From the IMG/VR virus record IMGVR_UViG_3300035520_000451: a DNA stretch of 64,000 nt; one strand, written 5' to 3'. How positions within the stretch are numbered: position 1 is the stretch's first letter; each line of letters opens with the position of its first letter. The position numbers were made by a program, and so were the translations under genes. Positions 5,389 to 61,282 of this stretch are shown one piece after another. The notes below the pieces were generated by a model, which had not been told where the DNA came from, searched no databases, and worked only from the letters and a program-made list of their open reading frames with translations. This stretch comes from a virus (taxonomy: Duplodnaviria > Heunggongvirae > Uroviricota > Caudoviricetes).

Positions 5389-6333
5389 TTAATGAATCCA
5401 GTGATCACTTATAGTTTTATCAGCTCCTAAAAATACATTCGGACAAAAAGGTTTTCCTCCTGCAATCATACATTTGACTAATATATCTCCAATATATTCT
5501 GCCATATCTTCTGGGCACTCTAGATTAAATTCATCATGTGCTACTACACATATTTTGACTACATTAAGTAAATTATTATCTTTTATCCAATTAAATAGTT
5601 TAATTGCAGATAATTTGAAAGCGCAGGCCCCACGATTTTGTATTCTGTAGTTTATGGATTGCTTTTCACAGTCTGATTTCCGACTAAGATAATGACTAAC
5701 ATTTCTAACAGTGTCACAATGTGGAGATTCTATTTTCATTTCTTGATAATATTGCCAATATTCAGGATCTTTACATTTCTCATGCATTTGTATAATCCAA
5801 TCTGCATCATAAATATGGGCTCTATGCTTTAGTATAGAGTTCATTAAGATATATCCTTTTTCCATTACATTTTGCCTACAATACTCTTGATATTGAGCTA
5901 CTCCTGGAAAACCCCTCATAAAATCAGAATATATCTTTTCTGCAGCTCGCAACGGAATACCTTTATTATTAGCTATAGTTTTAGCATCCCCGCCATAATT
6001 AACTGAAAACTCAATTCCTTTTGCATCCTGTCTTTGATCGTGATATAGTTCATTTATATCTTCTATTTTAGTGTCTCTGGGAATTATATTAGGATAAGAC
6101 ATATAGGCAACCAAACTATGAACATCTCCACATCCAGATTCAAATAATTCTACCATAGCTTTATCTTTAGAAACAGATGCAATAATTCTACTTTCTTGAC
6201 TTTGGTAATCACAAGAAATCCATTTATTACCTTTTTCTGAAGTAAAACATGCTCTAGTTATTTTATCATGTGGTAAATTCTGTTGGTTTAATTTATACTG
6301 ACCACCACCACTAGATACTCGCAACATTTCCAT
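5389..6333 (-). CDS. family-A DNA polymerase, C-terminal part (polymerase motifs A, B, C)
   Basis: Motif A DYQSQESRIIA (DYSQIELR-like), motif B RQDAKGIEFSVNYGG (RxxxKxxxFGxxYG), motif C VVAHDEF (HDE); start MEMLRVSS aligns to Pol I RLSSTDPNLQNIP. Confidence 0.8.
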   Translation of the reverse strand: MEMLRVSSGGGQYKLNQQNLPHDKITRACFTSEKGNKWISCDYQSQESRIIASVSKDKAMVELFESGCGDVHSLVAYMSYPNIIPRDTKIEDINELYHDQRQDAKGIEFSVNYGGDAKTIANNKGIPLRAAEKIYSDFMRGFPGVAQYQEYCRQNVMEKGYILMNSILKHRAHIYDADWIIQMHEKCKDPEYWQYYQEMKIESPHCDTVRNVSHYLSRKSDCEKQSINYRIQNRGACAFKLSAIKLFNWIKDNNLLNVVKICVVAHDEFNLECPEDMAEYIGDILVKCMIAGGKPFCPNVFLGADKTISDHWIH

Positions 6334-7377: not shown

Positions 7378-8682
7378 TTATGGAAATTTTTCACCTGTAT
7401 CTGTTCCAATAGAATGTAGATCAACATGAATTCTTCCAGTTACTGGATTAATAGCGTCTAACCAGTTTTGACCATAAGTAGATACAACTTTTGAGGCGGC
7501 TTGATACTTTAAAAATATAGCAAGAATAGGAAATTTATCAACTTGAGAACTAATTAACGTAGCATTAATGGACTTCTTTTCTTTTTTAGTCTTTTTATCA
7601 AAAGTTGTAACTTGTATCCCAAGAAGTTCAAATAATTTTATAACTTGAGTAGAACTACTCCAATTTATAGTGCATTGTGGCCCTATGTCATTACATTCTT
7701 CAAATAAGGATAATTGTAAATTTATAGATACAAATTTTCCTTTTATTTTATATCTGTAACACTCCATAGAATCATCTTTTTCGGGAAATCGAATAAATCC
7801 TAATGCTACTAATTTTTCTTTTTCTTTTTTATTTTTAGCATATCTATATAAATATTCTTTAGCATCTAAATCTATAACAAATTTATTTAATTGTGACTCA
7901 GCTTCTCTTAAAGAAGCTTGATCATTTTTCATTTTTTCTTTCCATTTAGAAATATCCAAATGAACTCCACAGAATTTTACATATGCTAAAAATTTAATAA
8001 ATTCACATTCAAATTCTGCAGCCTTTAAAAGATCTTGAGTAGATAATTCTTCTAGTTGCTTTTCTTTTATAGGCTCTAGCCACATTACATCCCCAGCAGC
8101 ATATACTACAACATCTTCTGTTAAACCTTCATTTATAATTTTTCCTCGAACAGTTTTGTCAATATCTACTCCAAGTCTTCTTTTTGCAGTAGCTCGTAAA
8201 GAATAAGATAATTCCCAATGTTCTTTAGTTTTTTCGTCGGGAGCAATATATTCATAACAAGAAGGTTTAATTCCATATGTCTGTACTATTTCGGTAGCTA
8301 ATACTCTAGGATACCCTAAATATATTAATTGTTCTACTACCATAGTATCATAAACATGATTGGGCCAAATATTTTGTTTATATAAAAAGGTTAAATCAAA
8401 CATTATATTATGCCCCAAGAACACTCTATCAGACTCTAGATATTCTTTTAAAATAGACTTTTCAGAAGGACTTATAGTTCTCCAATCAAATACAACTTGA
8501 TTTTCAGTACACCCTAATTGCAAAGTAAGTAATTCCTTCGTAAAACAATCTAATCCTTTAGTTTCTGTATCTAATTGTACCTCTTTTAAAGGATATAAAA
8601 TATCCATAGCCTCCTTAAAGTCTACTTCTCTATATCTTTCTGGAGAATATAGTTTTTTATCTTTACTTACTAAATAAATCAT
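7378..8682 (-). CDS. family-A DNA polymerase, N-terminal part (3'-5' exonuclease domain and thumb)
   Basis: Exo I motif LDTETKGLD; C-terminus NPVTGRIHVDLHSIGTDTG aligns to Pol I NPKTGRLHTSYHQAVTATG immediately before the motif-A region. Confidence 0.8.
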   Translation of the reverse strand: MIYLVSKDKKLYSPERYREVDFKEAMDILYPLKEVQLDTETKGLDCFTKELLTLQLGCTENQVVFDWRTISPSEKSILKEYLESDRVFLGHNIMFDLTFLYKQNIWPNHVYDTMVVEQLIYLGYPRVLATEIVQTYGIKPSCYEYIAPDEKTKEHWELSYSLRATAKRRLGVDIDKTVRGKIINEGLTEDVVVYAAGDVMWLEPIKEKQLEELSTQDLLKAAEFECEFIKFLAYVKFCGVHLDISKWKEKMKNDQASLREAESQLNKFVIDLDAKEYLYRYAKNKKEKEKLVALGFIRFPEKDDSMECYRYKIKGKFVSINLQLSLFEECNDIGPQCTINWSSSTQVIKLFELLGIQVTTFDKKTKKEKKSINATLISSQVDKFPILAIFLKYQAASKVVSTYGQNWLDAINPVTGRIHVDLHSIGTDTGEKFP

Positions 8683-8758: not shown

Positions 8759-9616
8759 TCATAATAATTCTTTTAATAAATCACTATATCTATCTCTAAT
8801 TTTTTTAATAGCTTCATGTTGAATTTGACGAACTCTTTCACATCCTATACCAAATCTACTAGCTATTTCTTCATGTTGCATAGCTTGCATACCTAAACCA
8901 TAAGACATTCTAAGAACATCTCGCTCTCTATAAGATAATTTAGATAAAACTACTTCCAATTCTTTAGATATTCCGTCTTTTATTAAAGAGGAATCTGTAG
9001 ATTCTGCATTTTCATTAGGAATAATATCTACTAGACTTCCTGCGTCTTCATCCATACTAAAAGGAGTATCTAATGATACAGACCTATTAAAAGATGCTGT
9101 TGCCAAATTAATATCATAAACAGGAATATCTAGCAAGTCCTCTAATTCTTCTGGAGAGGGTTTTCTAATATGCTCTTGTTCAAATTTAGCAGTTACTTTA
9201 TTTATTTTATTAACATTAGCAATTTGATTCATCGGAACACGTATTGTTCTACATTGATCCGATATAGCGTGCATAATAGATTGTCTTATCCACCAAACCG
9301 CATAAGAAATAAATCTAAATCCTCTAGTTTCATCATAACTTTGGGCTGCTTTTATTAAACCAATATTAGCCTCTTGTATTAAATCTACTAAAGGTAGTCC
9401 TTTATTTTGATATTGTTTGGCAACTGAAATTGCAAATCTTAAATTGGCATTTACTAATTCCTGTAAAGCCTCCTTATCTCCTTGCTTTATACGTTTGGCA
9501 AGACTTACTTCTTTATCTGCATTTATCATAGACTGCTTAGATACATCCTTGAAATATAATCCCAAGGATGCATCTTGTCTATCAGTTATTAATTGTGAAA
9601 TTTTAAAGCTCTTCAT
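8759..9616 (-). CDS. sigma-70 family RNA polymerase sigma factor
   Basis: Region 2 (LRFAISVAKQY, IQEANIGLIKAAQSYD, FISYAVWWIRQSI) and region 4 HTH (ERDVLRMSYGL...EIASRFGIGCERVRQIQHEAIKKI) recognisable. Confidence 0.8.
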   Translation of the reverse strand: MKSFKISQLITDRQDASLGLYFKDVSKQSMINADKEVSLAKRIKQGDKEALQELVNANLRFAISVAKQYQNKGLPLVDLIQEANIGLIKAAQSYDETRGFRFISYAVWWIRQSIMHAISDQCRTIRVPMNQIANVNKINKVTAKFEQEHIRKPSPEELEDLLDIPVYDINLATASFNRSVSLDTPFSMDEDAGSLVDIIPNENAESTDSSLIKDGISKELEVVLSKLSYRERDVLRMSYGLGMQAMQHEEIASRFGIGCERVRQIQHEAIKKIRDRYSDLLKELL

Positions 9617-10319: not shown

Positions 10320-10614
10320 TTTCTTTGGTATTTAAAAATTCTAAAAATAATCCAGCATAAGATTGAGCTTCGCTTTCATCGTAGGAACCTCTTATATGAA
10401 ATTGAAAGCAATGCAGAAGTTCGTGAACGAATGTATGCTCTATTTGATATTGTTTAAGTTCTATCGCCTTAGTACCTTCAAGTACTTTAGTAGCAATTGT
10501 AATTTCCTCTAGAACTGAATTATAGCACCCAAATTCACCTGGGTCATCACAAAACTCTACTATATTTACAGTAACAGTGTGCCCATGTATAATAAATTTA
10601 CTAGGAATTATCAT
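10312..10614 (-). CDS. small HExxH-motif protein (putative metallopeptidase-like)
   Basis: HELLH motif in a 100-aa ORF. Confidence 0.35.
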   Translation of the reverse strand: MIIPSKFIIHGHTVTVNIVEFCDDPGEFGCYNSVLEEITIATKVLEGTKAIELKQYQIEHTFVHELLHCFQFHIRGSYDESEAQSYAGLFLEFLNTKENV

Positions 10615-17051: not shown

Positions 17052-18065
17052 TTATAATTCTTTTATATGTTTAACTCGTTGTTCGACCTCCTGTTGCTTA
17101 CCAACGTTAAATGACGTCTTGTAGTCTCCGGTAAGGTAGCCTGTTACACGACGTAATCGTTTGATATTTTTACTACCGCACATAGGACAAGTATCATTCA
17201 ATTCATCAATATAACCACAGTCTTGACAAGAATCATTTGGTACATTAATGGCAAAGTATGGAATATCATGATCCATTGCATAATTAACAATCTCTTCAAT
17301 AGCTTCTGGATTATGCTTAGTAGAAGCAGGTAATTCAACATAAGTTATACAACCTGCACTACTGAAACCAGTAAGCTGTGATTCAATTTCAATTTTCTCA
17401 AATGGAGTGCATTCATGCCATACAGGTACGTGCATACTATTAGTAAAGAACTCACGTTCTGTAATTCCTGGAACTTCGCCAAATTGCTTCTTAAATTTCT
17501 GCATTGCTGTATAACACAGATTTTCAGCAGGAGTATAGTAAACACCAAAATTAAGTTTATAAGCTTCTTTGAATTCACTACATCTCTTCTTAAAGAGAGC
17601 TTCTAATTCTTTAGCTTTATCCATAATTTCTGAATCAGTGTGGTCTTTACCGAAAATAATTCTCAAAGCTTCTGATAATCCTAATTGACCAATAGCTAAA
17701 GTACCATGTTTTAATGCTGAACGGATACCTTCTTCAGGTTTATATCCATACATTACATTATTTTGATACATAAACTTAGCGGATGCAGCATCTTGACTAC
17801 ATATCCAATCAAATCGTTCAATTAGCATATCTTTTGCTTCATGAATCTTAGTATCCAACAATTCAATAAATTTATTCCATACTAAATCCTTGATATTTAC
17901 ATCTGCATTATCCATATTAGATATAGCTTGCAGTTTAGAATTCATTGCAAGTGTAGGAAGTATGATTGTAACAGGACAGATATTACCTCTACCATCTTTA
18001 AGTTGACCAAAACCATTAATATCCCAGCCATTCGCAGTTCTACACATTTTACCCAATGTCACCAT
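17052..18065 (-). CDS. nrdD: anaerobic ribonucleotide reductase NrdD, exon 2 (glycyl-radical domain)
   Basis: C-terminal Zn ribbon CQDCGYIDELNDTCPMCG and glycyl radical motif RVTGYL; MCRTANG aligns to E. coli NrdD MGCRSFLG. Confidence 0.85.
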   Translation of the reverse strand: MVTLGKMCRTANGWDINGFGQLKDGRGNICPVTIILPTLAMNSKLQAISNMDNADVNIKDLVWNKFIELLDTKIHEAKDMLIERFDWICSQDAASAKFMYQNNVMYGYKPEEGIRSALKHGTLAIGQLGLSEALRIIFGKDHTDSEIMDKAKELEALFKKRCSEFKEAYKLNFGVYYTPAENLCYTAMQKFKKQFGEVPGITEREFFTNSMHVPVWHECTPFEKIEIESQLTGFSSAGCITYVELPASTKHNPEAIEEIVNYAMDHDIPYFAINVPNDSCQDCGYIDELNDTCPMCGSKNIKRLRRVTGYLTGDYKTSFNVGKQQEVEQRVKHIKEL

Positions 18066-18331
18066 CGGAACTGACTATATGTTCATTCCTTGTTTCACAA
18101 CAAAGAGTTGTCTCTTGTTTGGAATCGGTGCTTATCTCCGATCCTACAGGGCTACACTCATCACCCTTAGTCGATACACATTCTGTACTAATATAACTAT
18201 AAGTACATTAGCACGGTCTCATCTTATTATTTACACTGCAATTATATAATAAGACCTAACCGTTAGCTTCTACGCTTAAATAGAAACACCCCTTAAGCAG
18301 GGTTAAAGAGATTTTAAATGGGCTGCAGTTT
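18066..18331 (-). other. ORF-less group-I-like intron interrupting nrdD (approximate bounds)
   Basis: 266-nt GC-richer, stem-rich segment with no ORF between two halves of one NrdD reading frame. Confidence 0.55.
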
Positions 18332-19549
18332 TCACTTACCCATTGTACTGAAATAAGTGCGAGGATCGTTTATATCATACCCTTCATTACCAGACCAATC
18401 TACATTGGCATAATTAGGGTATAACCTAAGACTCGTAACCTTAGTAGCTTCTTGGAATATATCATAATTCGGATCTCCAGGTTTTCGATTAACACCTTTC
18501 ATTAATTGAACGATACAGCACGGAAAAATCGGAGTGCTATGATGGCTACCAATACCATTCTTACTTACTTCAAGTAAAGCTAGACTAATAAGACGTCCTT
18601 CAGGTTGTGTACAAGTACCATAATTAATAGAAGTAAAAGGTAATTGATTACCACTTCTACTTTGTAGAGTATTTAAATTATGATACATACCTTCAACAGC
18701 TTGATGAATTTCTCGTTTAGTCATATCCAAAGCATATTCATAAGAATTAGGATGTTCTTTATACAAACTATCTTCTATAGACAAATCTGTTTGATCGTAT
18801 TTTTCATTACGAATGTGATCAATATACTTCAATCCAGTTCTATAATGCTTATTAAAAGATAGTCTTACATAGGGAACCATAGTCCAATCTAAATGAGTTG
18901 CAGATACACCACCAAATTGTTGTAAACTTTGTACTTGGAATATTACAGCTAATAATTGAAATGCTGTATTAATACTCTTAGCAGGTCTAACATCAGTTTG
19001 CTTTAGCTTAAACCCGTTAGCAAGTAAGTCATCTACTGGTATGCTCAAACAGTTGTGCATCCCTACAGCGTAAGAATCCAAATCATGAATGTATATTTCA
19101 TTATTTTCATGATTATGCTTAGCCATTTCAGACATACAATAATTAAGAGCATAATCTTTAGTTACAACTCTACCTGCTTCGCCAATACGTCCACCAAATG
19201 AATGCTCATCAATATTAGCATTTTGATTTTTTACATTAGAAGCTTCAAGTTTAGATTTAATACCTTTAATGAGTTTATCTTTTTCAGCACGGATCATCTT
19301 ACGTTCTTCTCTATAAAGAATATAAGCTTTAGCTACATCTGAATATCCATAATCCATTAAAAGTTCTTCAACTTGATCTTGTATATCTTCAATACTGATA
19401 TTATCCCAAATCTGGACTTCATCTACAATTTCCTCAATAGTTTTAGGGATACTTTCGTACCCACATTCTTTAAATGCTGCTGAAACTGCATTTACAATTT
19501 TACTTCTATTAAACTCAGCGGGCTCACCGTTTCTTTTTGTTACTTTCAT
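18332..19549 (-). CDS. nrdD: anaerobic ribonucleotide reductase NrdD, exon 1 (ATP-cone plus barrel)
   Basis: N-terminal ATP cone (VTKRNGEPAEFNRSKI); C-terminus ends FSTMGK, continuing into exon 2. Confidence 0.85.
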   Translation of the reverse strand: MKVTKRNGEPAEFNRSKIVNAVSAAFKECGYESIPKTIEEIVDEVQIWDNISIEDIQDQVEELLMDYGYSDVAKAYILYREERKMIRAEKDKLIKGIKSKLEASNVKNQNANIDEHSFGGRIGEAGRVVTKDYALNYCMSEMAKHNHENNEIYIHDLDSYAVGMHNCLSIPVDDLLANGFKLKQTDVRPAKSINTAFQLLAVIFQVQSLQQFGGVSATHLDWTMVPYVRLSFNKHYRTGLKYIDHIRNEKYDQTDLSIEDSLYKEHPNSYEYALDMTKREIHQAVEGMYHNLNTLQSRSGNQLPFTSINYGTCTQPEGRLISLALLEVSKNGIGSHHSTPIFPCCIVQLMKGVNRKPGDPNYDIFQEATKVTSLRLYPNYANVDWSGNEGYDINDPRTYFSTMGK

Positions 19550-38753: not shown

Positions 38754-38999
38754 TTATCGTATAAGTTCTTTATCTTATACTTCTATATATTACTATATAG
38801 TTCAGACTATCTCTTTAACTTACAAATGTAAGCAGTGCCCCGCTTTCGTGGAAGATTTTATAGCTACAGCTCTACCTGTTTAGCATCACTTCTAGTCGTT
38901 AGGCGTTTTCCTTTATTTCTAAAGGATTTAGCACGGGATTGTCCTATTTAGGAGTTTCCCCGTTTAACGGAGTTTTAGGTGCGTCTAGCCCTAATTTGG
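38754..38999 (-). other. ORF-less group-I-like intron in the dnaB-like helicase gene (approximate bounds)
   Basis: About 245-nt GC-richer, hairpin-rich non-coding segment (e.g. GGTGCGTCTAGCCCTAATTTGGCGCACC) between two in-frame halves of one helicase. Confidence 0.55.
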
Positions 39000-39770
39000 C
39001 GCACCAGTATCTTTGGTATCATCAATTCTTAAGTTATTTAATCCTTCTTTTCTTCTATCCATAGAAGTAGAATTTCGATTTGCTTGCATAATTACAAGCG
39101 GACTAATTTTACATATATTTCTTAATGTTACCAAATAGGAGGATATTAAATCCATTTCTTCTTTTAGAGTACGTCCATTAGACCTTCTTACTAAACTTAA
39201 ATGGTCTATAACTACTAAATGAGTAAGTTCTTCATTACTAGGATGATATATTTTTCTACCATCTGTTTCTTCAAACTTGCCATCTTTTTCTAGTTGAGCC
39301 ATTAAGATTGTATATAAACTACTAGCATTTAATGCTTTATCATAAATAACTAAAATCTTTTCAACCTTCTGTAACCAAGGTAAACATTCTTGAGTTATTT
39401 TATAATAATCATCAGATAATTTATAATTACGTTTTCTAGAAAGAAGTTCTCCAGTAGACAACTCTATTCCATAAGTTTCAAAGATATACATACTTAATAT
39501 CTTAGCATAGATCATTTCGGCGCTCATCTCTAATGAAAAATAACTAACTTTAAAATTACCATCATCAAGATGTTCCATTAATGGTCTATATACATAAGAA
39601 TATAAAGCAAGTGAACTCTTACCACTACCAGTAGGACTAAATACTAAAGTATAAATTCCTCTAGATACTCCATCTATTATCTCTTCTAATTTTGGGAGAC
39701 CCATTGAGTATCCCCACTGCTTACCTAATCTACCTACTTCAATCTGATGAAGTAATGATTCTGCAATCAT
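38991..39770 (-). CDS. DnaB-like replicative helicase, exon 1 (RecA-like core: H1, H1a, H2)
   Basis: GLPKLEEIIDGVSRGIYTLVFSPTGSGKSS (DnaB loader-facing motif plus Walker A), Walker B VVIDHLSLV, ending DTKDTGA. Confidence 0.65.
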   Translation of the reverse strand: MIAESLLHQIEVGRLGKQWGYSMGLPKLEEIIDGVSRGIYTLVFSPTGSGKSSLALYSYVYRPLMEHLDDGNFKVSYFSLEMSAEMIYAKILSMYIFETYGIELSTGELLSRKRNYKLSDDYYKITQECLPWLQKVEKILVIYDKALNASSLYTILMAQLEKDGKFEETDGRKIYHPSNEELTHLVVIDHLSLVRRSNGRTLKEEMDLISSYLVTLRNICKISPLVIMQANRNSTSMDRRKEGLNNLRIDDTKDTGAPN

Positions 39771-47538: not shown

Positions 47539-47940
47539 TTAAAAAGTGTTAAAGATATATACTAATCTCTTTAAGTTTGGCTCAAAAATTTGATAAAAAT
47601 CTTCTCTAATTCTAGCAGTAGGAAATTTCAACCACGCATAATTAAACAAAGGATCGTATCTATCAATTTTGCATACTTCACAAGCATGATTTTTAGTAAT
47701 AGCACATGTTAAAATATCAAATTTATCATACTTTGACCAAATTTCTTTCCATGCTTGATAGATACCTAGAATTTCTTTAAAAAGTCTAATACTTTTTTCG
47801 TCGGTTGCAGAAATTGAAACTTTACTAATATCTCTTGGAAATTCCTGTTTTAAATCAGTGATAATATATTGGGGATTTCCATTTACTTCGTTATATTCTA
47901 ATTGAAGATTTTCTCCTTTAATCGTATATTCTTTATTCAT
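47539..47940 (-). CDS. hypothetical protein
   Basis: 133-aa ORF. Confidence 0.4.
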   Translation of the reverse strand: MNKEYTIKGENLQLEYNEVNGNPQYIITDLKQEFPRDISKVSISATDEKSIRLFKEILGIYQAWKEIWSKYDKFDILTCAITKNHACEVCKIDRYDPLFNYAWLKFPTARIREDFYQIFEPNLKRLVYIFNTF

Positions 47941-51069: not shown

Positions 51070-52665
51070 TTATATTGTTAACCTATTAAGAAGTTCTTGA
51101 TCCATAGCAGATTCAAACAATTCTAATGCGTTTTTAGGAGTACTTTTCTTCTTAGTTCCTAATATAAATGATATAATAGAAGGATCATATCCAGACAAAT
51201 GATAAAAATTGGGAGCATCTGCAAAATCTTCAAACTTAGGTTTAGAAGATGTCCAAGTTGGAATATCCCATAGTATAATTTTAAAATTATCTATATATTC
51301 TTTATCAAATCCAGCTCTTCTAAGTCTATCAATTGCCTTATTAAAATTAGAAACAGTACCACAACTATCAAATTGCCCGTCTGAAATGCAAAGAATACCT
51401 TCTGGAAAAGATGTACAACCAAGCATTTTCATGTTAATAAACAAATCAATAACACTTTGAAAATTAGTATTTCCAATGCTATAGTGCGTGTCATTTAAAT
51501 ATTTATCAACGGGAGTTAAACCTTTCCATTTGTGTAAAACACAAGTATCATTAAATTCGGCATAAGTATCTTTAAATTTACCTGTTAAAGCAGTTGAAAA
51601 ATATAATGCAAGAGCTTTAGCAATGGTAAATGCAGTTACTTTACAACCAGGAACCATACTCATCATAGAACCTGAAGTATCTCTAACAACTAATAATTTA
51701 GAAGGAGATTCTTGCAATAAATTCTTGAATTGTGCATTAATAGTGTACTTTACATATTCTGGAACTTGGGTAACATTTTCACAAGGTTTAAAGAGTTCAA
51801 ATACATATCCAGTATATTTAGCTATAGGTTGATTTTTAATCCATTCTAAGTATTTGTTAGAAAGATTTTGATTTTCTAAAAATTTAGAATTAACTAAAAG
51901 GGATAAAGCACGCCCAGAAACGGAATTAAAATCTATTTTATCAAATAATCGTTTAGATATTAATTGCTGCCATTTATGAGCAGAACCTTTACTTTTAAGT
52001 TTTCTATATTCTTTAAAAGATTCTTTAGAATTAAATAAACTTTTAGCTATCCATCTGCCTATTATAGTATCTGCTTGTGATTTTATTGTAGTTGCTTTAG
52101 AATTAGTCTTTATAGTAGGAAGATATTTTCTAACAAGATTAGTACAATTTTTATTACTTAATCCAGCTTGAATAACTCCTAGCATAAAATTCCAATCTAA
52201 AACACGATTATTCCAACCATGATATTGTAAATCTAAATTTAGCATTGTGAAAATATCTTTCCAAGAACCCGCTAATATAAATATAGAAATATTAGATTTA
52301 AAAGTATTAGGATGATTAATTGCAATCCAGATTATTCTTAGAATGCCCTCATTTTTCAATCCTTGTCCTTTTTGTACTTCTAATATTTCATCATCATTTT
52401 TAGTAGCTCTTGTAATCATTCGGATATAAACTGCTAATTTAAGACACTTTAAAGGATCTACATTCCATAAAAGTTCCATGTCATTAGCTACTTCAGAATA
52501 TGCTCTAGGATCTCTAAAAGAACCAATACTAGCAAAATTATCTATAAAAGCATTTCCAGAAGTTGAATATTTTACAGCTCCGTTTTCTGAAACTGTTTCA
52601 TATTGATTTTTTACATCAATAGACTCATCAAAGAGATTTGTTAATTTTTTGTCAAACATAATCAT
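51070..52665 (-). CDS. vWA-domain protein (MIDAS DxSGS), possible Ro60/TROVE-like architecture
   Basis: VVRDTSGSMMS (MIDAS) and ILCISDGQFD vWA motifs in the C-terminal third; about 330-aa N-terminal domain of unknown type; total 531 aa. Confidence 0.4.
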   Translation of the reverse strand: MIMFDKKLTNLFDESIDVKNQYETVSENGAVKYSTSGNAFIDNFASIGSFRDPRAYSEVANDMELLWNVDPLKCLKLAVYIRMITRATKNDDEILEVQKGQGLKNEGILRIIWIAINHPNTFKSNISIFILAGSWKDIFTMLNLDLQYHGWNNRVLDWNFMLGVIQAGLSNKNCTNLVRKYLPTIKTNSKATTIKSQADTIIGRWIAKSLFNSKESFKEYRKLKSKGSAHKWQQLISKRLFDKIDFNSVSGRALSLLVNSKFLENQNLSNKYLEWIKNQPIAKYTGYVFELFKPCENVTQVPEYVKYTINAQFKNLLQESPSKLLVVRDTSGSMMSMVPGCKVTAFTIAKALALYFSTALTGKFKDTYAEFNDTCVLHKWKGLTPVDKYLNDTHYSIGNTNFQSVIDLFINMKMLGCTSFPEGILCISDGQFDSCGTVSNFNKAIDRLRRAGFDKEYIDNFKIILWDIPTWTSSKPKFEDFADAPNFYHLSGYDPSIISFILGTKKKSTPKNALELFESAMDQELLNRLTI

Positions 52666-55721: not shown

Positions 55722-55793
55722 AGCGGAAGCTAGGATTCGAACCTGCGATCTCTTGGTTATGAGCCAAGCGAGATACCACTTCTCCATTCCGCG
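55722..55793 (-). tRNA. tRNA-Met-like (anticodon CAT) with imperfect T stem and acceptor
   Basis: D arm GAGA-AGTGGTA-TCTC, anticodon stem CTTGG/CCAAG with loop CTCATAA (CAT), T loop TTCGAAT; T stem only 3 bp and the acceptor register is ambiguous when folded by hand. Confidence 0.5.
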
Positions 55794-55969: not shown

Positions 55970-56037
55970 GAGGGGTTGTCGAGAGTCGAACTCGACTAGT
56001 AGTAGAACCGAAGAAATTAATAATACCGATAACCCCT
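55970..56037 (-). tRNA. tRNA-like gene (68 nt; arms other than acceptor and T not resolvable by eye)
   Basis: Acceptor AGGGGTT/AACCCCT and T arm TCGAG-TTCGACT-CTCGA are clear; the central 33 nt do not give obvious D and anticodon arms. Confidence 0.4.
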
Positions 56038-56040
56038 TTG

Positions 56041-56113
56041 TACAGCGTTAGAGATTTGAACTCTAGTTTCCAGAATGAAAATCTGACGTCCTAACCAACT
56101 AGACGAATGCTGC
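56041..56113 (-). tRNA. tRNA-Glu (anticodon TTC)
   Basis: Hand-folded: acceptor GCAGCAT/ACGCTGT (one mismatch), D arm GTCT-AGTTGGTTA-GGAC, anticodon stem TCAGA/TCTGG, loop TTTTCAT, T arm TAGAG-TTCAAAT-CTCTA. Confidence 0.7.
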
Positions 56114-56149
56114 AACTTACAGAATACTTTATATAGATATTTAATTTTA

Positions 56150-56178
56150 ATATTAATTGCTGTAAGTATTCTTGTAAA
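56150..56178 (-). promoter_or_regulatory. sigma-70-type promoter reading into the tRNA/minihelix cluster
   Basis: Minus strand TTTACA-17 nt-TAATAT about 35 nt upstream of tRNA-Glu. Confidence 0.5.
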
Positions 56179-56369
56179 CAGGTGGCAAAATAATCCTTAA
56201 TTTCAAGTTAAGTTTTTATAATTTGCTGTGTGCCACCTTATATTTTATTTCTCTGAGTAAGTAATGCAAAGATACCACTATTTGAGCACAATTCCAAATT
56301 TTTGATGTTAAAAATTGTAAACAAGTGGTATCTTCGCAAACCAACTAAAAACTAAAAAATGAACTCCAT

Positions 56370-56825
56370 TTATAATTTTTTGTAGAAAATCGCAACCTCA
56401 GGCTTATATATTATATAGCCTAGCTCTTTCAGAAGTTTGACTGCATTTTCTTCAGTAAGTTCATGTACAGGTTCTAGTTGAACATGAGCTTCTACAGGTT
56501 TCTCAACTTCTTTTGAGGAATGCTTTTCTCTGTAAGTCTTGCTATAATCACAGACTATCTTACGATAGTCTTTGTGAATTTTAGCCAGCACACTAATATG
56601 TATTGGCTTATCGTTCTTGAATATGTAACAGCCTCTGCTCAGCTGTTGTACAATACCGCTACGTTTCACTGCCATCCAAAAAACATCATTGTCCGGCAGA
56701 CCAATTCCTTTGAGTCCACTTATAAACAGACTTCTACTAAAAGGTCTGTTTAAACACATTAGATTTCTTTTCAGGTTGTTCAAATCAGCGATATGCTCTT
56801 CAGGTTTGAAATCTTTACTTCTCAT
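56370..56825 (-). CDS. hypothetical protein
   Basis: 151-aa ORF. Confidence 0.45.
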   Translation of the reverse strand: MRSKDFKPEEHIADLNNLKRNLMCLNRPFSRSLFISGLKGIGLPDNDVFWMAVKRSGIVQQLSRGCYIFKNDKPIHISVLAKIHKDYRKIVCDYSKTYREKHSSKEVEKPVEAHVQLEPVHELTEENAVKLLKELGYIIYKPEVAIFYKKL

Positions 56826-57036
56826 TTTCTACTGACTTTAAAGTGTTATACATATCTTCTACTAACTCACCAAGAACTCTAGTATCAGTAATCTGACGTC
56901 CGTAGTACTTAGAGAAAATCTCTGGAATTCTCGGCTCTATGTCGATAATTCCATAATTTTTATTTGCTTGGATAGTAATCTTTCCTAAGCCTATAACTTC
57001 AAACTCTTCAAAAATTGAATGCTTACCTAATTGCAT
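56815..57036 (-). CDS. hypothetical protein
   Basis: 73-aa ORF. Confidence 0.4.
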   Translation of the reverse strand: MQLGKHSIFEEFEVIGLGKITIQANKNYGIIDIEPRIPEIFSKYYGRQITDTRVLGELVEDMYNTLKSVENEK

Positions 57037-57188
57037 AGATTTTACTCCGTTAGCTAGAGATTCATTTTAATGCCAACATTATATTCAAGATCTTGCTTGC
57101 CATAGTAGATTTTTAACCGAGAGCTACTATACTTCACTCTACTCAAACCTACAAAAAGGATTATACACATTCTGTTAAAAGCCTTCAT

Positions 57189-57250
57189 ACCTCGTCAAGG
57201 TAGTGTATATTATGAAGGATTTTGAGACCTAAGTCTCGGGAATTTCAACC
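57189..57250 (-). promoter_or_regulatory. repeat element copy A (conserved flanks, variable hairpin)
   Basis: Plus-strand ACCTCGTCAAGGTA...GAAGGATTTT-hairpin(GAGACCTAAGTCTC)-GGGAATTTCAACC; upstream of 56815..57036 on the minus strand. Confidence 0.5.
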
Positions 57251-57260
57251 CTCTGAGGAT

Positions 57261-57500
57261 TTAATCCTCTGGACGACAATATGCTTCTCCTTCGATTTCC
57301 TCGAAGTCTGACATAATATCGTCTATTTGAACCGTAGTCCAAGCACCTTTAAAAGGTATATCATCAATATCAATACTACCACGATTATACTCAGGTAGTT
57401 CAATATCGACTTTATACTTTCTTGTGTGACGAAATGGTTCCCAATGCCCCATTACACCTAATTCGGTATAACCATCGAGCTTAATTGTCTTCTGTATCAT
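57261..57500 (-). CDS. hypothetical protein
   Basis: 79-aa ORF. Confidence 0.4.
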   Translation of the reverse strand: MIQKTIKLDGYTELGVMGHWEPFRHTRKYKVDIELPEYNRGSIDIDDIPFKGAWTTVQIDDIMSDFEEIEGEAYCRPED

Positions 57501-57808
57501 GCCTCTTTAACTATATAAATTCCTTCGTCTATGAATATATGATAAATCGCTTTAACAATTTGAAGATTGTCTGCAATATCATCTTCAAACCAATGATAAG
57601 CTCCTAAATCCCTAACAAATACATGTTGGTACAACTGACCAACAACACCTGCCCAATTAAAGGGCATGTTATATTGTGATAGATTTTCAGCAGCAAGCAT
57701 AATACAATCTACCATGTAACCTGCATTATCATATCCATGCTCTTCGAGAATGTTAATTAGTTCTGGAGCAGTAAAAGAATGTTTCTTATTTTTGAATCTT
57801 ATTTTCAT
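57497..57808 (-). CDS. hypothetical protein, WAGVVGQLY family paralog 1
   Basis: Shares NWAGVVGQLY and LQIVKAIYHIFIDE blocks with 57975..58277 and 59692..60195. Confidence 0.5.
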   Translation of the reverse strand: MKIRFKNKKHSFTAPELINILEEHGYDNAGYMVDCIMLAAENLSQYNMPFNWAGVVGQLYQHVFVRDLGAYHWFEDDIADNLQIVKAIYHIFIDEGIYIVKEA

Positions 57809-57974
57809 TGCTTTCTTCTTTTAAAACCCCCCAATAGACAAATTGTCTAAAGGAGGGAAACACATGAAACTTACTCACTGTAATAAACTGCAAGAGCTTC
57901 CTCTTGAGTTAATGTAGGATGGGCTTCTCTATCTAAAGAGTAAACCTCTGCTGGTACTTTAATATCTTCTTTCT

Positions 57975-58277
57975 TCATGGCTCTTCTTCTAATTTGAATC
58001 CCAATCTCTCGAGATCCATGATTGCAAATACTACTTGAAGGAGAATTGCAGCATTACCTGCATATTCGTTTGGAGTTGCGGTTTCTTTATAGATGGTTTT
58101 ATACAATTGACCAACTACTCCTGCCCAAGAAAGTGGTTCAATATCCATACAAAATCTTTCGGACGCACCAATAATGATGTGCACAATTCTGTCAGATCCA
58201 ATGTATCCTAAATCTTTTAAGACATCAGATACTTTTGATTCGAAGATGATTTCTTTGTCTTTTGTAAATTGTATCAT
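57975..58277 (-). CDS. hypothetical protein, WAGVVGQLY family paralog 2
   Basis: SWAGVVGQLY and AILLQVVFAIMDLE blocks. Confidence 0.5.
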   Translation of the reverse strand: MIQFTKDKEIIFESKVSDVLKDLGYIGSDRIVHIIIGASERFCMDIEPLSWAGVVGQLYKTIYKETATPNEYAGNAAILLQVVFAIMDLERLGFKLEEEP

Positions 58278-58338
58278 TTTTATTGTTTTTAAGTTGATAT
58301 TCTTGTTATTTTATGAGTGTTAGTTAATAAGCCTTCTA

Positions 58339-58408
58339 ACCACGTCAAGGTACTCATATAAGAAGGATTTTAGGGATATTGTGCGCACGATCCCAGGGAA
58401 TTTCAACC
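58339..58408 (-). promoter_or_regulatory. repeat element copy B
   Basis: ACCACGTCAAGGTA...GAAGGATTTT-hairpin(GGGATATTGTGCGCACGATCCC)-AGGGAATTTCAACC; about 60 nt upstream of 57975..58277. Confidence 0.5.
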
Positions 58409-58867
58409 CAGTTTATTTTTAGGTGGAGCTAAAGGGTAAACCAACCTACAGGTTTTGCACAGTAATACAACTTTCCCACTTTGTATACTGCGCTTTGATA
58501 GTGAATGAGAGCCTGCATCATCACAAATAGTTACCAGCTTAATCCTAAAGAGGAGCTAGTATAAAATCCCAGTATAACTTAATTAAGTTACGGCGGGAAT
58601 AAATGATCACAACTTCTAAGAAGTATAACTTAATTAAATAAGTTACTGTGATCCTAACATAATATTTACACCAGAACTCGCGTTAAATAACAGAGTTTGA
58701 ATCTGATGTATTTGAAATTAATAGCTGAGAAGAACTTAATATAGGACTCTTCTCGTATCCTTATTTCCCACCCATAAATGCACGGATAATTATAATAATT
58801 CCCGTGATAAAATAGATGAAAAAAATTATTGTAAAAATAACCGTCAATACAGATTCTATAAATTCCA

Positions 58868-59182
58868 TTATAAACCAGTTTGAGACTTTATTTGATCTTG
58901 TGTCGCTTTAGGCAGATAATACTTATACTCTTTACCAGTCTTTTTACTAATTCTCTTTACATATAAAGAACCAGTTTTAGACTTATAAATTGGATATTTA
59001 TTACCTTCTTTATCTTGCCAAAAATATGCTGTTTTAGTATCAGCAGTAGTAGTTTGAGTAGTAGTAAATGTATTACCAGTACGCACTACTTCTGCATTAA
59101 TATTACAAACCCCCAACAACATTAACACTAAACTAAAAATAATCTTCTTCATAATCTTCTTTATTAAAACTTCCTCAAGCAT
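58868..59182 (-). CDS. small secreted protein
   Basis: Internal start MKKIIFSLVLMLLGVCNINA is a signal peptide; Thr-rich mature part. Confidence 0.45.
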   Translation of the reverse strand: MLEEVLIKKIMKKIIFSLVLMLLGVCNINAEVVRTGNTFTTTQTTTADTKTAYFWQDKEGNKYPIYKSKTGSLYVKRISKKTGKEYKYYLPKATQDQIKSQTGL

Positions 59183-59211
59183 ACGCTCGAGGAGGAAAAC
59201 AATTATAACCC

Positions 59212-59508
59212 TTACGATGCCACGAAAATATAATAGCCATGTTCACGCATCCAAAAAATGAACGCAATGAGATCATCTGTGGCTATTAAATCCACAAAAT
59301 CTTCAAAGCTGTGACTATTAGTGTAACTTTTAAGAATCTCCTGCAAACAATCTGCCCACCGATCAGTGGAATATTTTTGCAGGGAATTCCCAACATAGAG
59401 ACAAAGGCGGAAGATAGTACTCTCATCATAATTTAATTTATCAGAAAGTTCTCTTACCTCTTCCATCTCTAGACATACGTTATTCTTGTTAACGATATAC
59501 CATTTCAT
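59212..59508 (-). CDS. hypothetical protein
   Basis: ORF. Confidence 0.4.
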   Translation of the reverse strand: MKWYIVNKNNVCLEMEEVRELSDKLNYDESTIFRLCLYVGNSLQKYSTDRWADCLQEILKSYTNSHSFEDFVDLIATDDLIAFIFWMREHGYYIFVAS

Positions 59509-59509
59509 A

Positions 59510-59695
59510 TCACCATAATATATATACTATCATGCCTCCAAGGAATAAAAATGCCCAAGAGAACAGGACTAGATTAGTAAAAAAATGATTAAATTTCTCC
59601 AAATCTTCACCAAACAATTTTGTTCCGTAAAGAGACACTAACAACTGGAATGCAAAGATTCCAGCTGCCAGTGTCAAATACCATACAAGTATCAT
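59510..59695 (-). CDS. small two-TM membrane protein
   Basis: Two hydrophobic helices in 61 aa. Confidence 0.4.
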   Translation of the reverse strand: MILVWYLTLAAGIFAFQLLVSLYGTKLFGEDLEKFNHFFTNLVLFSWAFLFLGGMIVYILW

Positions 59696-60195
59696 TTGTT
59701 TCGAAGTAATTCGTCCATTAATATTGATACCAATTCGTCTTTAAAACGTACTGGTTCATCGTATACAGCGATAGCCTTTACTGCCTGAATCAGAATAGCT
59801 GAATCACGGAGAAAATCGTCATAGCGATCCTCGCGAAGGTAGTCAATTCCTCTCTGCATTGCTTCATACGCAGGGAGAGAAAAATGCTTTACAGCATTAT
59901 TACTCTCCAACTTGTAGGCAATAACCAATCCGTCATTGGACAGAATATTGCCTATGTTGTCCTGCAGCTTTTTAGCGCAGTTCATTGCTCGCTTGTTCAG
60001 TGCCTCCATAAGCACTCCTGCATGAGCACGTACTACTGCATCTGAATATGCAGCGTAGTCGAAGTAAGTGTACTGGCTATCCTTTTCTGGAATAATCATC
60101 TCTATGGAAACTGAGTTGTTATTCTCAGTTCTCTTTATATTAGGAAGAGTATTCAGGTTTGGTTTGGTTCTTAGTCCAGCCATAGTATTTCCCAT
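59692..60195 (-). CDS. hypothetical protein, divergent member of the WAGVVGQLY family (GC-richer)
   Basis: C-terminal DSAILIQAVKAIAVYDE aligns with paralog C-terminal blocks; about 42% GC against about 30% background. Confidence 0.45.
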   Translation of the reverse strand: MGNTMAGLRTKPNLNTLPNIKRTENNNSVSIEMIIPEKDSQYTYFDYAAYSDAVVRAHAGVLMEALNKRAMNCAKKLQDNIGNILSNDGLVIAYKLESNNAVKHFSLPAYEAMQRGIDYLREDRYDDFLRDSAILIQAVKAIAVYDEPVRFKDELVSILMDELLRNK

Positions 60196-60537
60196 GCCAT
60201 TGGGTTATCTTTAATGAGGCAAATGTGCAAGATAAATGCTCACACGCATACACCCATATTGGATGCCGTCACAACTCCTATTACCAATTCAGGAGTAAGC
60301 CTACATATTATTCAGCTTTTACGAAAAGTTCTCTGTCTATTCCAGAGTGCCACTTAAGAAATTCTTCTTAAGATACTCTTAATCTGCATAATAAATAGCT
60401 AAAGCTTCTTCATTACTTAGTTTAGAGTGATCTACTCTATCTTCAAAGTAGACTTTACTGATTTTGATATTACTTTTATCCATAATCATAAATTTTTTTT
60501 TCATTATACAAAGGTGCTTTCAGTTTAAAGCCTCTCT

Positions 60538-60597
60538 ACCACGTCAAGGTAGCACCAATCAGAAAGGATTTCGGGCTTATGCCCAGGAATTTCAACC
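60538..60597 (-). promoter_or_regulatory. repeat element copy C
   Basis: ACCACGTCAAGGTA...GAAAGGATTT-hairpin(CGGGCTTATGCCC)-AGGAATTTCAACC; upstream of a 37-aa ORF plus 59692..60195. Confidence 0.5.
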
Positions 60598-60809
60598 TAA
60601 TTCTTTTCACAAATCATAATCATCCCATGCCCTGCACCAATTATTTTAAATATGCAGGTATCTAAATCCAGAAACTTAATATCCTTAATGTTTACACAGT
60701 TACTAAGTTTTTCTACGTGATCTTTTACAAAATCATGTGCTTCTGCATAGGAATCGAAAGCATTTTCAAAATATGCCATCGGATTTACTGTTTTTACAAT
60801 ATATTTCAT
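60597..60809 (-). CDS. hypothetical protein
   Basis: 70-aa ORF. Confidence 0.4.
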   Translation of the reverse strand: MKYIVKTVNPMAYFENAFDSYAEAHDFVKDHVEKLSNCVNIKDIKFLDLDTCIFKIIGAGHGMIMICEKN

Positions 60810-60979
60810 ATTTTTAGTTATTTAGTTTTCAGAAATTAATTTTTTTTACTTATTTAAAAATTACTTTTTAGAACAAAGATAGTTTTTGTAAAATAGTATA
60901 AACTAGATTACAAAATGAAAAATGAAGGAATATGGAAAATAGAGAAAAACGGGCACAGAAAAGTGTACCCGTTCTCTTA

Positions 60980-61282
60980 TCATCTAAAGGAACCTCTCCA
61001 ATCTTCTTTGTGAGATGCTAACCATTCATCAAATGCATATTTAGGTTTCTTTGCGGGCAACACTCTAATAATTTCCCACTCATTACCCTTTTTCATAAGA
61101 GTAAAGAATCCTAATAATACACATCTTCCGTACCAATTTGGGTATATTTTGTATTTTTTGGTTTTGGTAAATATATCCAGATGGTCAAGTCGACCAAATA
61201 CTGTGTGATAAATCATACAAAAAATATACAAAATAAAAAAGGGGAAAGACACTCCTAATGGAGTGTCCACCCTTTTACTCAA
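60980..61282 (-). CDS. hypothetical protein
   Basis: 100-aa ORF. Confidence 0.4.
   Translation of the reverse strand: MSKRVDTPLGVSFPFFILYIFCMIYHTVFGRLDHLDIFTKTKKYKIYPNWYGRCVLLGFFTLMKKGNEWEIIRVLPAKKPKYAFDEWLASHKEDWRGSFR

Follow-up and report, generated by a model that had tools for sequence, protein, structure and literature searches.

A candidate hepatitis delta virus-like ribozyme variant with an inverted core pair set at gene-cassette junctions of a tailed phage

The tailed phage record IMGVR_UViG_3300035520_000451 (Caudoviricetes), analyzed here over a stretch of 64,000 nt (the window; 29% G+C), carries three copies, c1 to c3, of a short non-coding repeat between small genes. Genes up to ~62 kb all lie on the minus strand. 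Along the direction of leftward transcription, an open reading frame (ORF) at 60809-60597 is followed by c3, five small ORFs, a non-coding stretch of ~350 nt, and c2, and then by ORFs of 100, 35, 103, and 79 amino acids (aa), c1, ORFs of 73 and 151 aa, and tRNA genes. Each copy contains a hairpin and, behind it, a nested double pseudoknot akin to the minimal ribozymes of the hepatitis delta virus (HDV) type, or theta ribozymes, of phages, and we propose that in this gut-type phage these modules probably cut the transcript between gene cassettes.

The repeat is defined by two sequence blocks. Read on the minus strand, GGTTGAAATTCC and TACCTTGACGWGGT each occur exactly three times in the window, and a search of the whole 64 kb at two to three mismatches returned only unrelated sites; a candidate fourth copy at 47622-47633 (one block, one mismatch) was discarded, its surroundings having no similarity to the element. 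Because both blocks are confined to the same three places and enclose a different hairpin each time, the repeat is real, and it lies where an initial annotation, made from the sequence alone, had placed it. That annotation also held that a hairpin of differing sequence separates the blocks in every copy and that selection acts on its structure, and the former point was confirmed and the latter is supported. The element itself is ~27 nt longer than first described; as transcribed, its downstream ends lie at 57162, 58312, and 60513 (Table 1). The hairpin between the blocks (H1) has a stem of its own in each copy, and the GGTTGAAATTCC block folds into a second small hairpin (H0), its loop UUGAAAUU closed by a GGG/CCC or AGG/CCU stem that covaries across copies and relatives. 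In the sister phage contig L001 (IMG/VR), H1 of the c2 ortholog reads GGGAUAU/AUAUUCC and includes a G·U pair possible on the gene strand only, and the TGA stop codon of the ORF upstream of the c1 ortholog falls inside H0. Just upstream of c1, the window has a 16-nt insertion relative to L001 (ATTAAATCCTCAGAGG, a CAGAGG duplication; window 57252-57267, L001 6259-6275), which adds a small hairpin and displaces the 79-aa ORF's stop codon from H0.

Table 1. Positions of the three modules and their predicted RNA parts in the window.
Feature	Positions	Strand	Details
c1 full module	57162-57251	-	
c1 H0	57238-57251	-	GGG-UUGAAAUU-CCC; the GGAATTTCAACC block of the initial annotation
c1 H1	57224-57237	-	GAGAC-UUAG-GUCUC, then AAAAU (57219-57223)
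c1 pseudoknot	57162-57218	-	P1 57212-57218/57182-57188; P2 57203-57209/57162-57168; P3 57199-57201/57189-57191
c1 L3	57192-57198	-	UUGACGA
c1 candidate catalytic C	57174	-	
c1 predicted cleavage	57219/57218	-	
c2 full module	58312-58409	-	
c2 H0	58396-58409	-	Hairpin GGGUUGAAAUUCCC
c2 H1	58373-58394	-	GGGAU...AUCCC, then UAAAAU
c2 pseudoknot	58312-58366	-	P1 58361-58366/58332-58337; P2 58352-58358/58312-58318; P3 58349-58351/58339-58341
c2 candidate catalytic C	58323	-	
c2 predicted cleavage	58367/58366	-	
c3 full module	60513-60598	-	
c3 H0	60585-60598	-	AGG-UUGAAAUU-CCU; overlaps the TAG stop codon (60597-60599) of ORF 60597-60809
c3 H1	60573-60584	-	GGGC-AUAA-GCCC, then GAAAU
c3 pseudoknot	60513-60567	-	P1 60561-60567/60531-60537, including a U·G pair; P2 60551-60556/60513-60518; P3 60548-60550/60538-60540
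c3 candidate catalytic C	60523	-	
c3 predicted cleavage	60568/60567	-	

Behind H1, each copy contains a 55- to 57-nt nested double pseudoknot of three helices, P1, P2, and P3. P1 joins the bases just before a segment of 8 to 10 nt, initially taken as a spacer, to the bases that follow TACC..GGTA (CCUUCA/UGAAGG, CCUUCU/AGAAGG, and CCUUUC/GAGAGG in c1, c2, and c3), and in all three copies the supposed spacer itself forms P2 by pairing with a segment 12 to 14 nt further downstream (in DNA letters, TATACAC/GTGTATA, TATGAG(T)/(A)CTCATA, and GGTGC(T)/(A)GCACC). The fold is a pseudoknot because the P2 pairing crosses that of P1. The order of segments (P1 5′ strand, P2 5′ strand, P3 hairpin, P1 3′ strand, linker, P2 3′ strand) is the same throughout, the helix coordinates of the three copies were verified base by base, and when both strands of the window were searched with a general HDV-type descriptor, these copies alone matched. 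G·U or U·G pairs in P1 of c3, P1 of the related contig L012, and H1 of L001 would be A·C mismatches on the opposite strand. Self-cleavage of that strand was considered and rejected; the helix order there is formally similar, yet only the gene strand accommodates the G·U pairs, the catalytic-C motif, and the theta match. The nested pseudoknot fold is near certain.

Relatives bear out the pairing. L001 holds orthologs of c1 and c2, plus an ortholog of c3 with an 8-nt deletion. A metagenome scan with a 22-base pattern returned nine true relatives, whose new helix sequences were complementary every time, and a 17-base sequence pattern found 51 sites in IMG/VR, 24 of which have P1 and P2 complementarity in place (compared with 1.6% after flank shuffling) and ~5 more of which bear an extra P4 hairpin. 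Distinct relatives, trimmed to their common helix cores, gave a set of 32 sequences in which five of five P2 pairs and four of six P1 pairs have changed on both sides. The covariation score of this set was 0.854, a value reached by none of 500 shuffles (0.207 when shuffled) and replaced by 0.14 or less when the partners were slid. Pattern matches in L002-L007, L008, L014, L015, and L020-L022 proved to be chance occurrences in coding DNA. Among bacterial representative genomes, only about 2 to 3 of 120 pattern matches have the fold and the rest are chance. The element is essentially a phage feature. A megablast search of 56000-61000 against GenBank phages gave no match.

The closest known structures are the theta ribozymes of gut Caudoviricetes (Kienbeck et al. 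2024, PMC10879173; prototype drz-Mtgn-1), which share the nested double pseudoknot without P4 and the length of ~55 nt. Published theta strings (PMC10879173, Supplementary Data Files 2 and 4) run P1, J1/2, P2, ACC, T, CC, ACGT, GGT, P1′, GG, L4, CTAA, P2′, and c1 runs CCTTCAT, AA, TATACAC, (T)ACC, T, TG, ACGA, GGT, ATGAAGG, CT, TTTAA, CAGAAT, GTGTATA; c1, c2, and c3 all agree with the published strings segment by segment. Also shared are a P3 of ACC/GGU or GCC/GGC (GCC/GGC and CCC/GGG in the G+C-rich relatives of the variant), an L3 of the form U-NN-ACGU (here U-UG-A-C-G-N), a short L4 such as UUUAA, a J4/2 of C(U/C/A/G)(A/G)A (CAGA, CUAA, or CUGA), a P1 of 6 to 7 bp, and a P2 of 5 to 7 bp. 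Both kinds are sense-strand elements of non-coding gaps in phage genomes, and some members sit at a tRNA 3′ end (L054). At the first J4/2 position, which corresponds to the general-acid cytosine C75, all three copies and the relatives have a C followed by NAA or NGA just 5′ of the P2 3′ strand. U20 and G25, whose reverse wobble holds the catalytic Mg2+ in the HDV and CPEB3 ribozymes (PMC4836649), are invariant in 32 of 32 sequences. Kinship of the element to the HDV-like/theta family is near certain. The alternative that the initial annotation had mentioned beside a promoter, namely a structured 5′ leader or processing site, is supported.

The variant departs from theta ribozymes in the core. 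At +1 it has a C paired with G37, where theta has G1·U/C37; L3 positions 21-22 are UG rather than CC, UC, GC, or AC; positions 38-39 are CU rather than GG, GA, GC, or GU; and P1.1 could form only as G22-C38 with a U·U pair beside it. Relative to the published core, both the pair at the cleavage site and its putative P1.1 neighbor are inverted, the two changing in concert. UG at 21-22 and CU at 38-39 are present in every member, making the flipped G22-C38 and the U·U pair possible with no variation within the class, and the ~9 to 10 members found without constraining positions 1-2 or 36-40 all have C1-G37 and then CU. A description of this core variant (C1-G37, G22-C38) was not found in the searchable literature, the coverage of which is incomplete, so that an earlier description is possible.

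We consider it reasonably probable that the modules consist of one or two small hairpins and an HDV-like ribozyme variant that cuts the phage transcript between cassettes. We infer that the RNA would cleave itself 5′ of P1 despite the flipped core, and catalysis by such a core is plausible. Several observations weigh against this reading. In place of the G at +1 (G1·U37 or G-C) that marks HDV-like ribozymes, C1-G37 is found in 32 of 32 sequences, and the published minimal HDV-like/theta sequences to which these were compared (PMC10879173, Supplementary Data Files 2 and 4) all have G at +1, C22, and G38; the absence of the C1 variant from that set is no independent evidence, because the published search motif appears to require G1. 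The Rfam HDV-like models leave the variant unscored at E ≤ 10 (window) and at E ≤ 1 (L001 and L064), and they give the canonical copies in L001 and L064 28 to 38 bits, under the gathering score of 44. Rfam 15 likewise left the element unmatched over the window at the gathering threshold and in E-value scans of 56900-60700 and related loci. The wobble pair at the HDV cleavage site reportedly matters for activity, a result ascribed to Perrotta and Been in 1996. Copies can also decay, as seen in the c3 ortholog of L001 (7757-7834), which lacks 8 nt (ACCTTGAC) comprising the P3 5′ strand and part of L3 and still sits at a cassette junction. Finally, the pairing of 99.8% of cells in the 32 sequences is partly circular, because these sequences were selected for pairing; the covariation measures and the shuffled-flank control are free of that circularity.

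A rival reading is that the HDV-like fold was kept and cleavage lost, the RNA acting, for instance, as a compact 5′-proximal or intercistronic knot against exonucleases, a protein-binding site, or a translational spacer, or persisting mainly by promoting recombination. Replacement of both G1·U37 and C22-G38, which are invariant in published sets, and the failure of the Rfam HDV-like models to score the variant would suit such a role. We nonetheless find it rather unlikely. Although the helices diverge widely, the residues on which catalysis depends in HDV-type ribozymes (U20, G25, and the J4/2 C with NAA or NGA after it) are retained without exception, and the two flipped pairs change together in all members found without constraint, a coupling more in keeping with a coordinated alternative core than with decay. 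Genomic position also speaks against loss of cleavage. In L054, the variant occupies the gap between tRNA-Asn (3′ end at 10497) and tRNA-Thr within an array of 20 tRNAs, and its P1 starts at 10495, 2 nt past the called 3′ end of tRNA-Asn; in L032, it stands in the position of a canonical ribozyme, after a hairpin orthologous to one in L053 that has a canonical theta ribozyme behind it. The same can be said of the base preceding the predicted cut (-1), which is never G in the 32 sequences (A 16, U 14, C 2); such avoidance is expected if a G there would extend P1 onto C38.

As expected of a cleavage site, a stable hairpin ends 0 to 6 nt before the predicted cut in most members, variant or canonical non-tRNA, and the structurally conserved hairpin of the initial annotation is this hairpin. 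The variant and canonical kinds occur in one genome in L001, L032, and L064. Whereas tRNA-associated theta ribozymes follow a tRNA, c1 to c3 follow a hairpin and an ORF, and the activity of the variant is a prediction. Tested against the narrow definition of tRNA-associated theta ribozymes (cleavage ≤5 nt from a tRNA 3′ end), c1 to c3 have no tRNA beside them, and L054 falls within it. No ribozyme follows any of the four tRNAs of the window (Leu, Gln, Met, and Glu); in L001 (1162-1301), a canonical theta ribozyme (1226-1162) stands right after tRNA-Met, and the window tRNA-Met (55722-55792) is 95% identical. Other structured RNAs were observed in these contigs. On the minus strand in its early region, L001 has a RAGATH-1 hammerhead ribozyme (9447-9521; 71.6 bits, above the gathering score), for which no window counterpart was found, and L032 has a partial match to GOLLD RNA (5886-6326; 79.8 bits, gathering score 150, E 3e-19), which lies among tRNA genes and adjoins, downstream, one variant and one canonical HDV-like ribozyme.

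In the mechanism we propose, each module would be transcribed within a leftward, minus-strand polycistronic transcript, and the RNA would fold during transcription and self-cleave after AAAAU, directly on the 5′ side of P1. The RNA upstream of the cut would then end in the H1 hairpin with a 2′,3′-cyclic phosphate, and the downstream cassette mRNA would start with a 5′-OH and the compact ribozyme. A 3′ hairpin and a structured 5′-OH end should slow exonucleolytic and 5′-end-dependent decay in bacteria, and we infer an effect on mRNA stability by which cutting could split the transcript into separately stable cassettes. The cut at c2 would release the 3′ end of a non-coding RNA of ~350 nt (58410-58760). 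This stretch (minus strand; L001 7406-7753) lies directly upstream of c2, contains no ORF, is >92% conserved in the sister phage, and is highly structured by prediction, with the palindrome GTAACTTAATTAAGTTAT occurring twice and no Rfam match. The transcript running from c3 to c1 probably starts between 60945 and 60810; a strong intrinsic-terminator-like site, a 13-bp stem followed by a T-rich tail, is present at 60945-60976 (minus strand), upstream of the ORF located before c3. A 41-aa ORF (60379-60504) is the first gene to follow c3, its ATG only 9 nt past the ribozyme; with the 35-aa ORF (~57839-57946), also on the minus strand, it makes up a second small paralogous pair, both members ending in EEALA(I/V)YY(A/S)(D/E).

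At the DNA level, the conserved modules of ~86 to 98 bp are islands of homology at which related phages have swapped cassettes. The window and L001 are homologous over 57041-58760 and, separately, over the 86-nt c3 module alone (60513-60598, corresponding to L001 7757-7834), whose flanks are unrelated between the two phages at both the DNA and the protein level. Contigs L009, L010, L016, and L019 have one module in common and differing combinations of flanks. Because they form islands of homology between unrelated or recombined flanks, the modules sit at cassette-exchange junctions. The same islands and flank recombinations could be read as those of a purely DNA-level element with no RNA function, such as a recombination or homing site or the boundary of a mobile cassette resembling a promoter-early stem-loop (PeSL). 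This we judge very unlikely; pairing is conserved independently of sequence and G·U pairs occur on one strand only, which argues for selection at the RNA level, no recombinase or endonuclease gene is consistently adjacent, and the shuffling is better seen as a by-product of a repeated conserved sequence.

In the promoter reading, which the initial annotation named first, TTGACG would be the -35 element and TATAAT or TAAAAT a distant -10 element, recognized by the phage sigma factor (8759-9616) or a host one. TTGACG is indeed invariant in the variant, the hexamers do follow 27 to 33 nt downstream in the three window copies, the phage does encode a sigma-70-family protein, and c1 has one 9/12 match (TTGACG, 18 nt, CAGAAT). 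We nevertheless give this reading scant credence, as a DNA promoter would leave the compensatory changes in three helices unexplained. In the RNA, TTGACG makes up loop L3 of a conserved hairpin, and canonical relatives have UCCACGU where the variant has UUGACGU. The spacing exceeds the 16 to 18 bp of sigma-70 promoters, the hexamers are out of register among the copies, and there is no positionally conserved -10 element because the hexamers overlap the P2 3′ strand in c1 and c2 and are shifted past it in c3; relatives with entirely different helix sequences have no -10-like box at the corresponding place. A consensus promoter scan found 35 sites against 33.2 expected, that is, no enrichment in the region, and the L054 element fills the spacer between two tRNAs inside the array. 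An intrinsic terminator or attenuator between cassettes, suggested by a hairpin right after upstream stop codons, has a negligible chance, since H1 is followed by AAAAU with no U tract, a terminator scan called none of the three copies, and the downstream pseudoknot would be left unexplained.

Other identities were tried and dropped. A tRNA, permuted tRNA, or Y-RNA-like RNA had been prompted by the T-loop-like GGUUGAAAUUCC, the anticodon-loop-like UUGACGU, and the gene at 51070-52665, but neither ARAGORN nor the Rfam tRNA model reported a match at the copies or upstream of L017a, and a cloverleaf would need a different helix order. That gene, beside the tRNA cluster, encodes a 531-aa protein with DUF2828/DUF7788 domains; some phage homologs carry the annotation RNA-binding protein, and we take the family to be Ro60/TROVE-like. 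Given the pseudoknot and the theta match, three further ideas were set aside: an N4-type hairpin promoter, an integron attC-like core (GTTRRRY), and antitermination sites like lambda nut or HK022 put.

Of the WAGVVGQLY protein family to which the repeat had initially been tied (57497-57808, 57975-58277, and 59692-60195), the 103-aa and 100-aa proteins are paralogs (30% identity, E 5e-12), and the 167-aa protein has no significant similarity to the pair (hhalign probability 16% over 23 residues). Nor do two units begin with this family; both paralogs lie in the one unit downstream of c2, and their link to the repeat is incidental. A search of the ten neighboring small proteins against PHROGs yielded a single uninformative family. 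Elsewhere in the window are a group I intron (38783-39040; 70 bits), an anaerobic ribonucleotide reductase NrdD split over two ORFs (17052-19549), and a 434-aa ORF (7378-8682) that encodes a family A polymerase exonuclease domain but, of the polymerase domain, no more than the start; the split NrdD and the partial polymerase ORF suggest interrupted genes. Shine-Dalgarno-like motifs precede only 4 of 35 ORFs of ≥150 aa, and the sequence ahead of the starts is rich in A and T, as it is in Bacteroidota and the phages that infect them. Scarce Shine-Dalgarno motifs are typical of Bacteroidota hosts, and Bacteroidota promoters are unlike TTGACA/TATAAT. The low count suggests a Bacteroidota-type host, in agreement with the ~90% of theta-ribozyme phage hosts that are predicted to be Bacteroidota (PMC10879173). 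Amber-suppressor tRNAs (anticodon CTA) occur in L001 (11910-11981), L010 (173-245), L012 (106-195), and L052 (6090-6161), with none found in the window; their presence in variant-carrying contigs hints at TAG recoding in this phage group.

More broadly, we hold it an evenly balanced proposition that C1-G37 and G22-C38 together mark an unrecognized, active variant of the HDV-like core, widespread in phages of several G+C classes, used with an upstream hairpin mainly for transcript cutting rather than tRNA trimming, and doubling as a shuffling junction. If the variant is active, the G1·U37 wobble and C22-G38 would not be obligatory when changed together, and since both pairs are built into all HDV-like search motifs that we inspected, the 2024 theta survey and similar censuses would have missed a whole class. 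If the proposed role is correct, it would also provide one for the isolated phage ribozymes not associated with tRNAs, whose function that survey left open; between cassettes, they would generate both 3′ and 5′ RNA ends while transcription continues. In phage genomics, the modules are markers for the edges of exchangeable cassettes within a plastic early region, and a natural insulator of ~90 nt built from a hairpin and a ribozyme could be of use in engineering.

Several known systems resemble the modules in part. The PeSL cassettes of T4-type phages, reportedly described by Arbiol et al. in Genome Biol Evol in 2010, are said to combine a sigma-70 promoter with a terminator. Like them, the window modules are short, repeated, non-coding stem-loop units that stand between small non-essential genes in a plastic region, at the borders of cassettes shuffled by recombination; in place of an early promoter and a functional terminator, they carry a ribozyme-type RNA fold. 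RiboJ, a ribozyme insulator engineered from a hammerhead-type satellite ribozyme, offers a parallel for the proposed role, being a self-cleaving ribozyme upstream of a coding sequence that uncouples it from the upstream RNA context, although it is not a natural phage element. Similar in the altered part of the core is the mammalian HDV-like CPEB3 ribozyme, whose L3, UUCACGU, is near the UUGACGU of the variant. As is possible for the variant, the active CPEB3 ribozyme has a P1.1 of a single G-C pair and one U·U pair (PMC4836649), but, unlike the variant, it is intronic and eukaryotic, has G1·U36 and a P4 helix, and keeps C22-G38 in the usual orientation.

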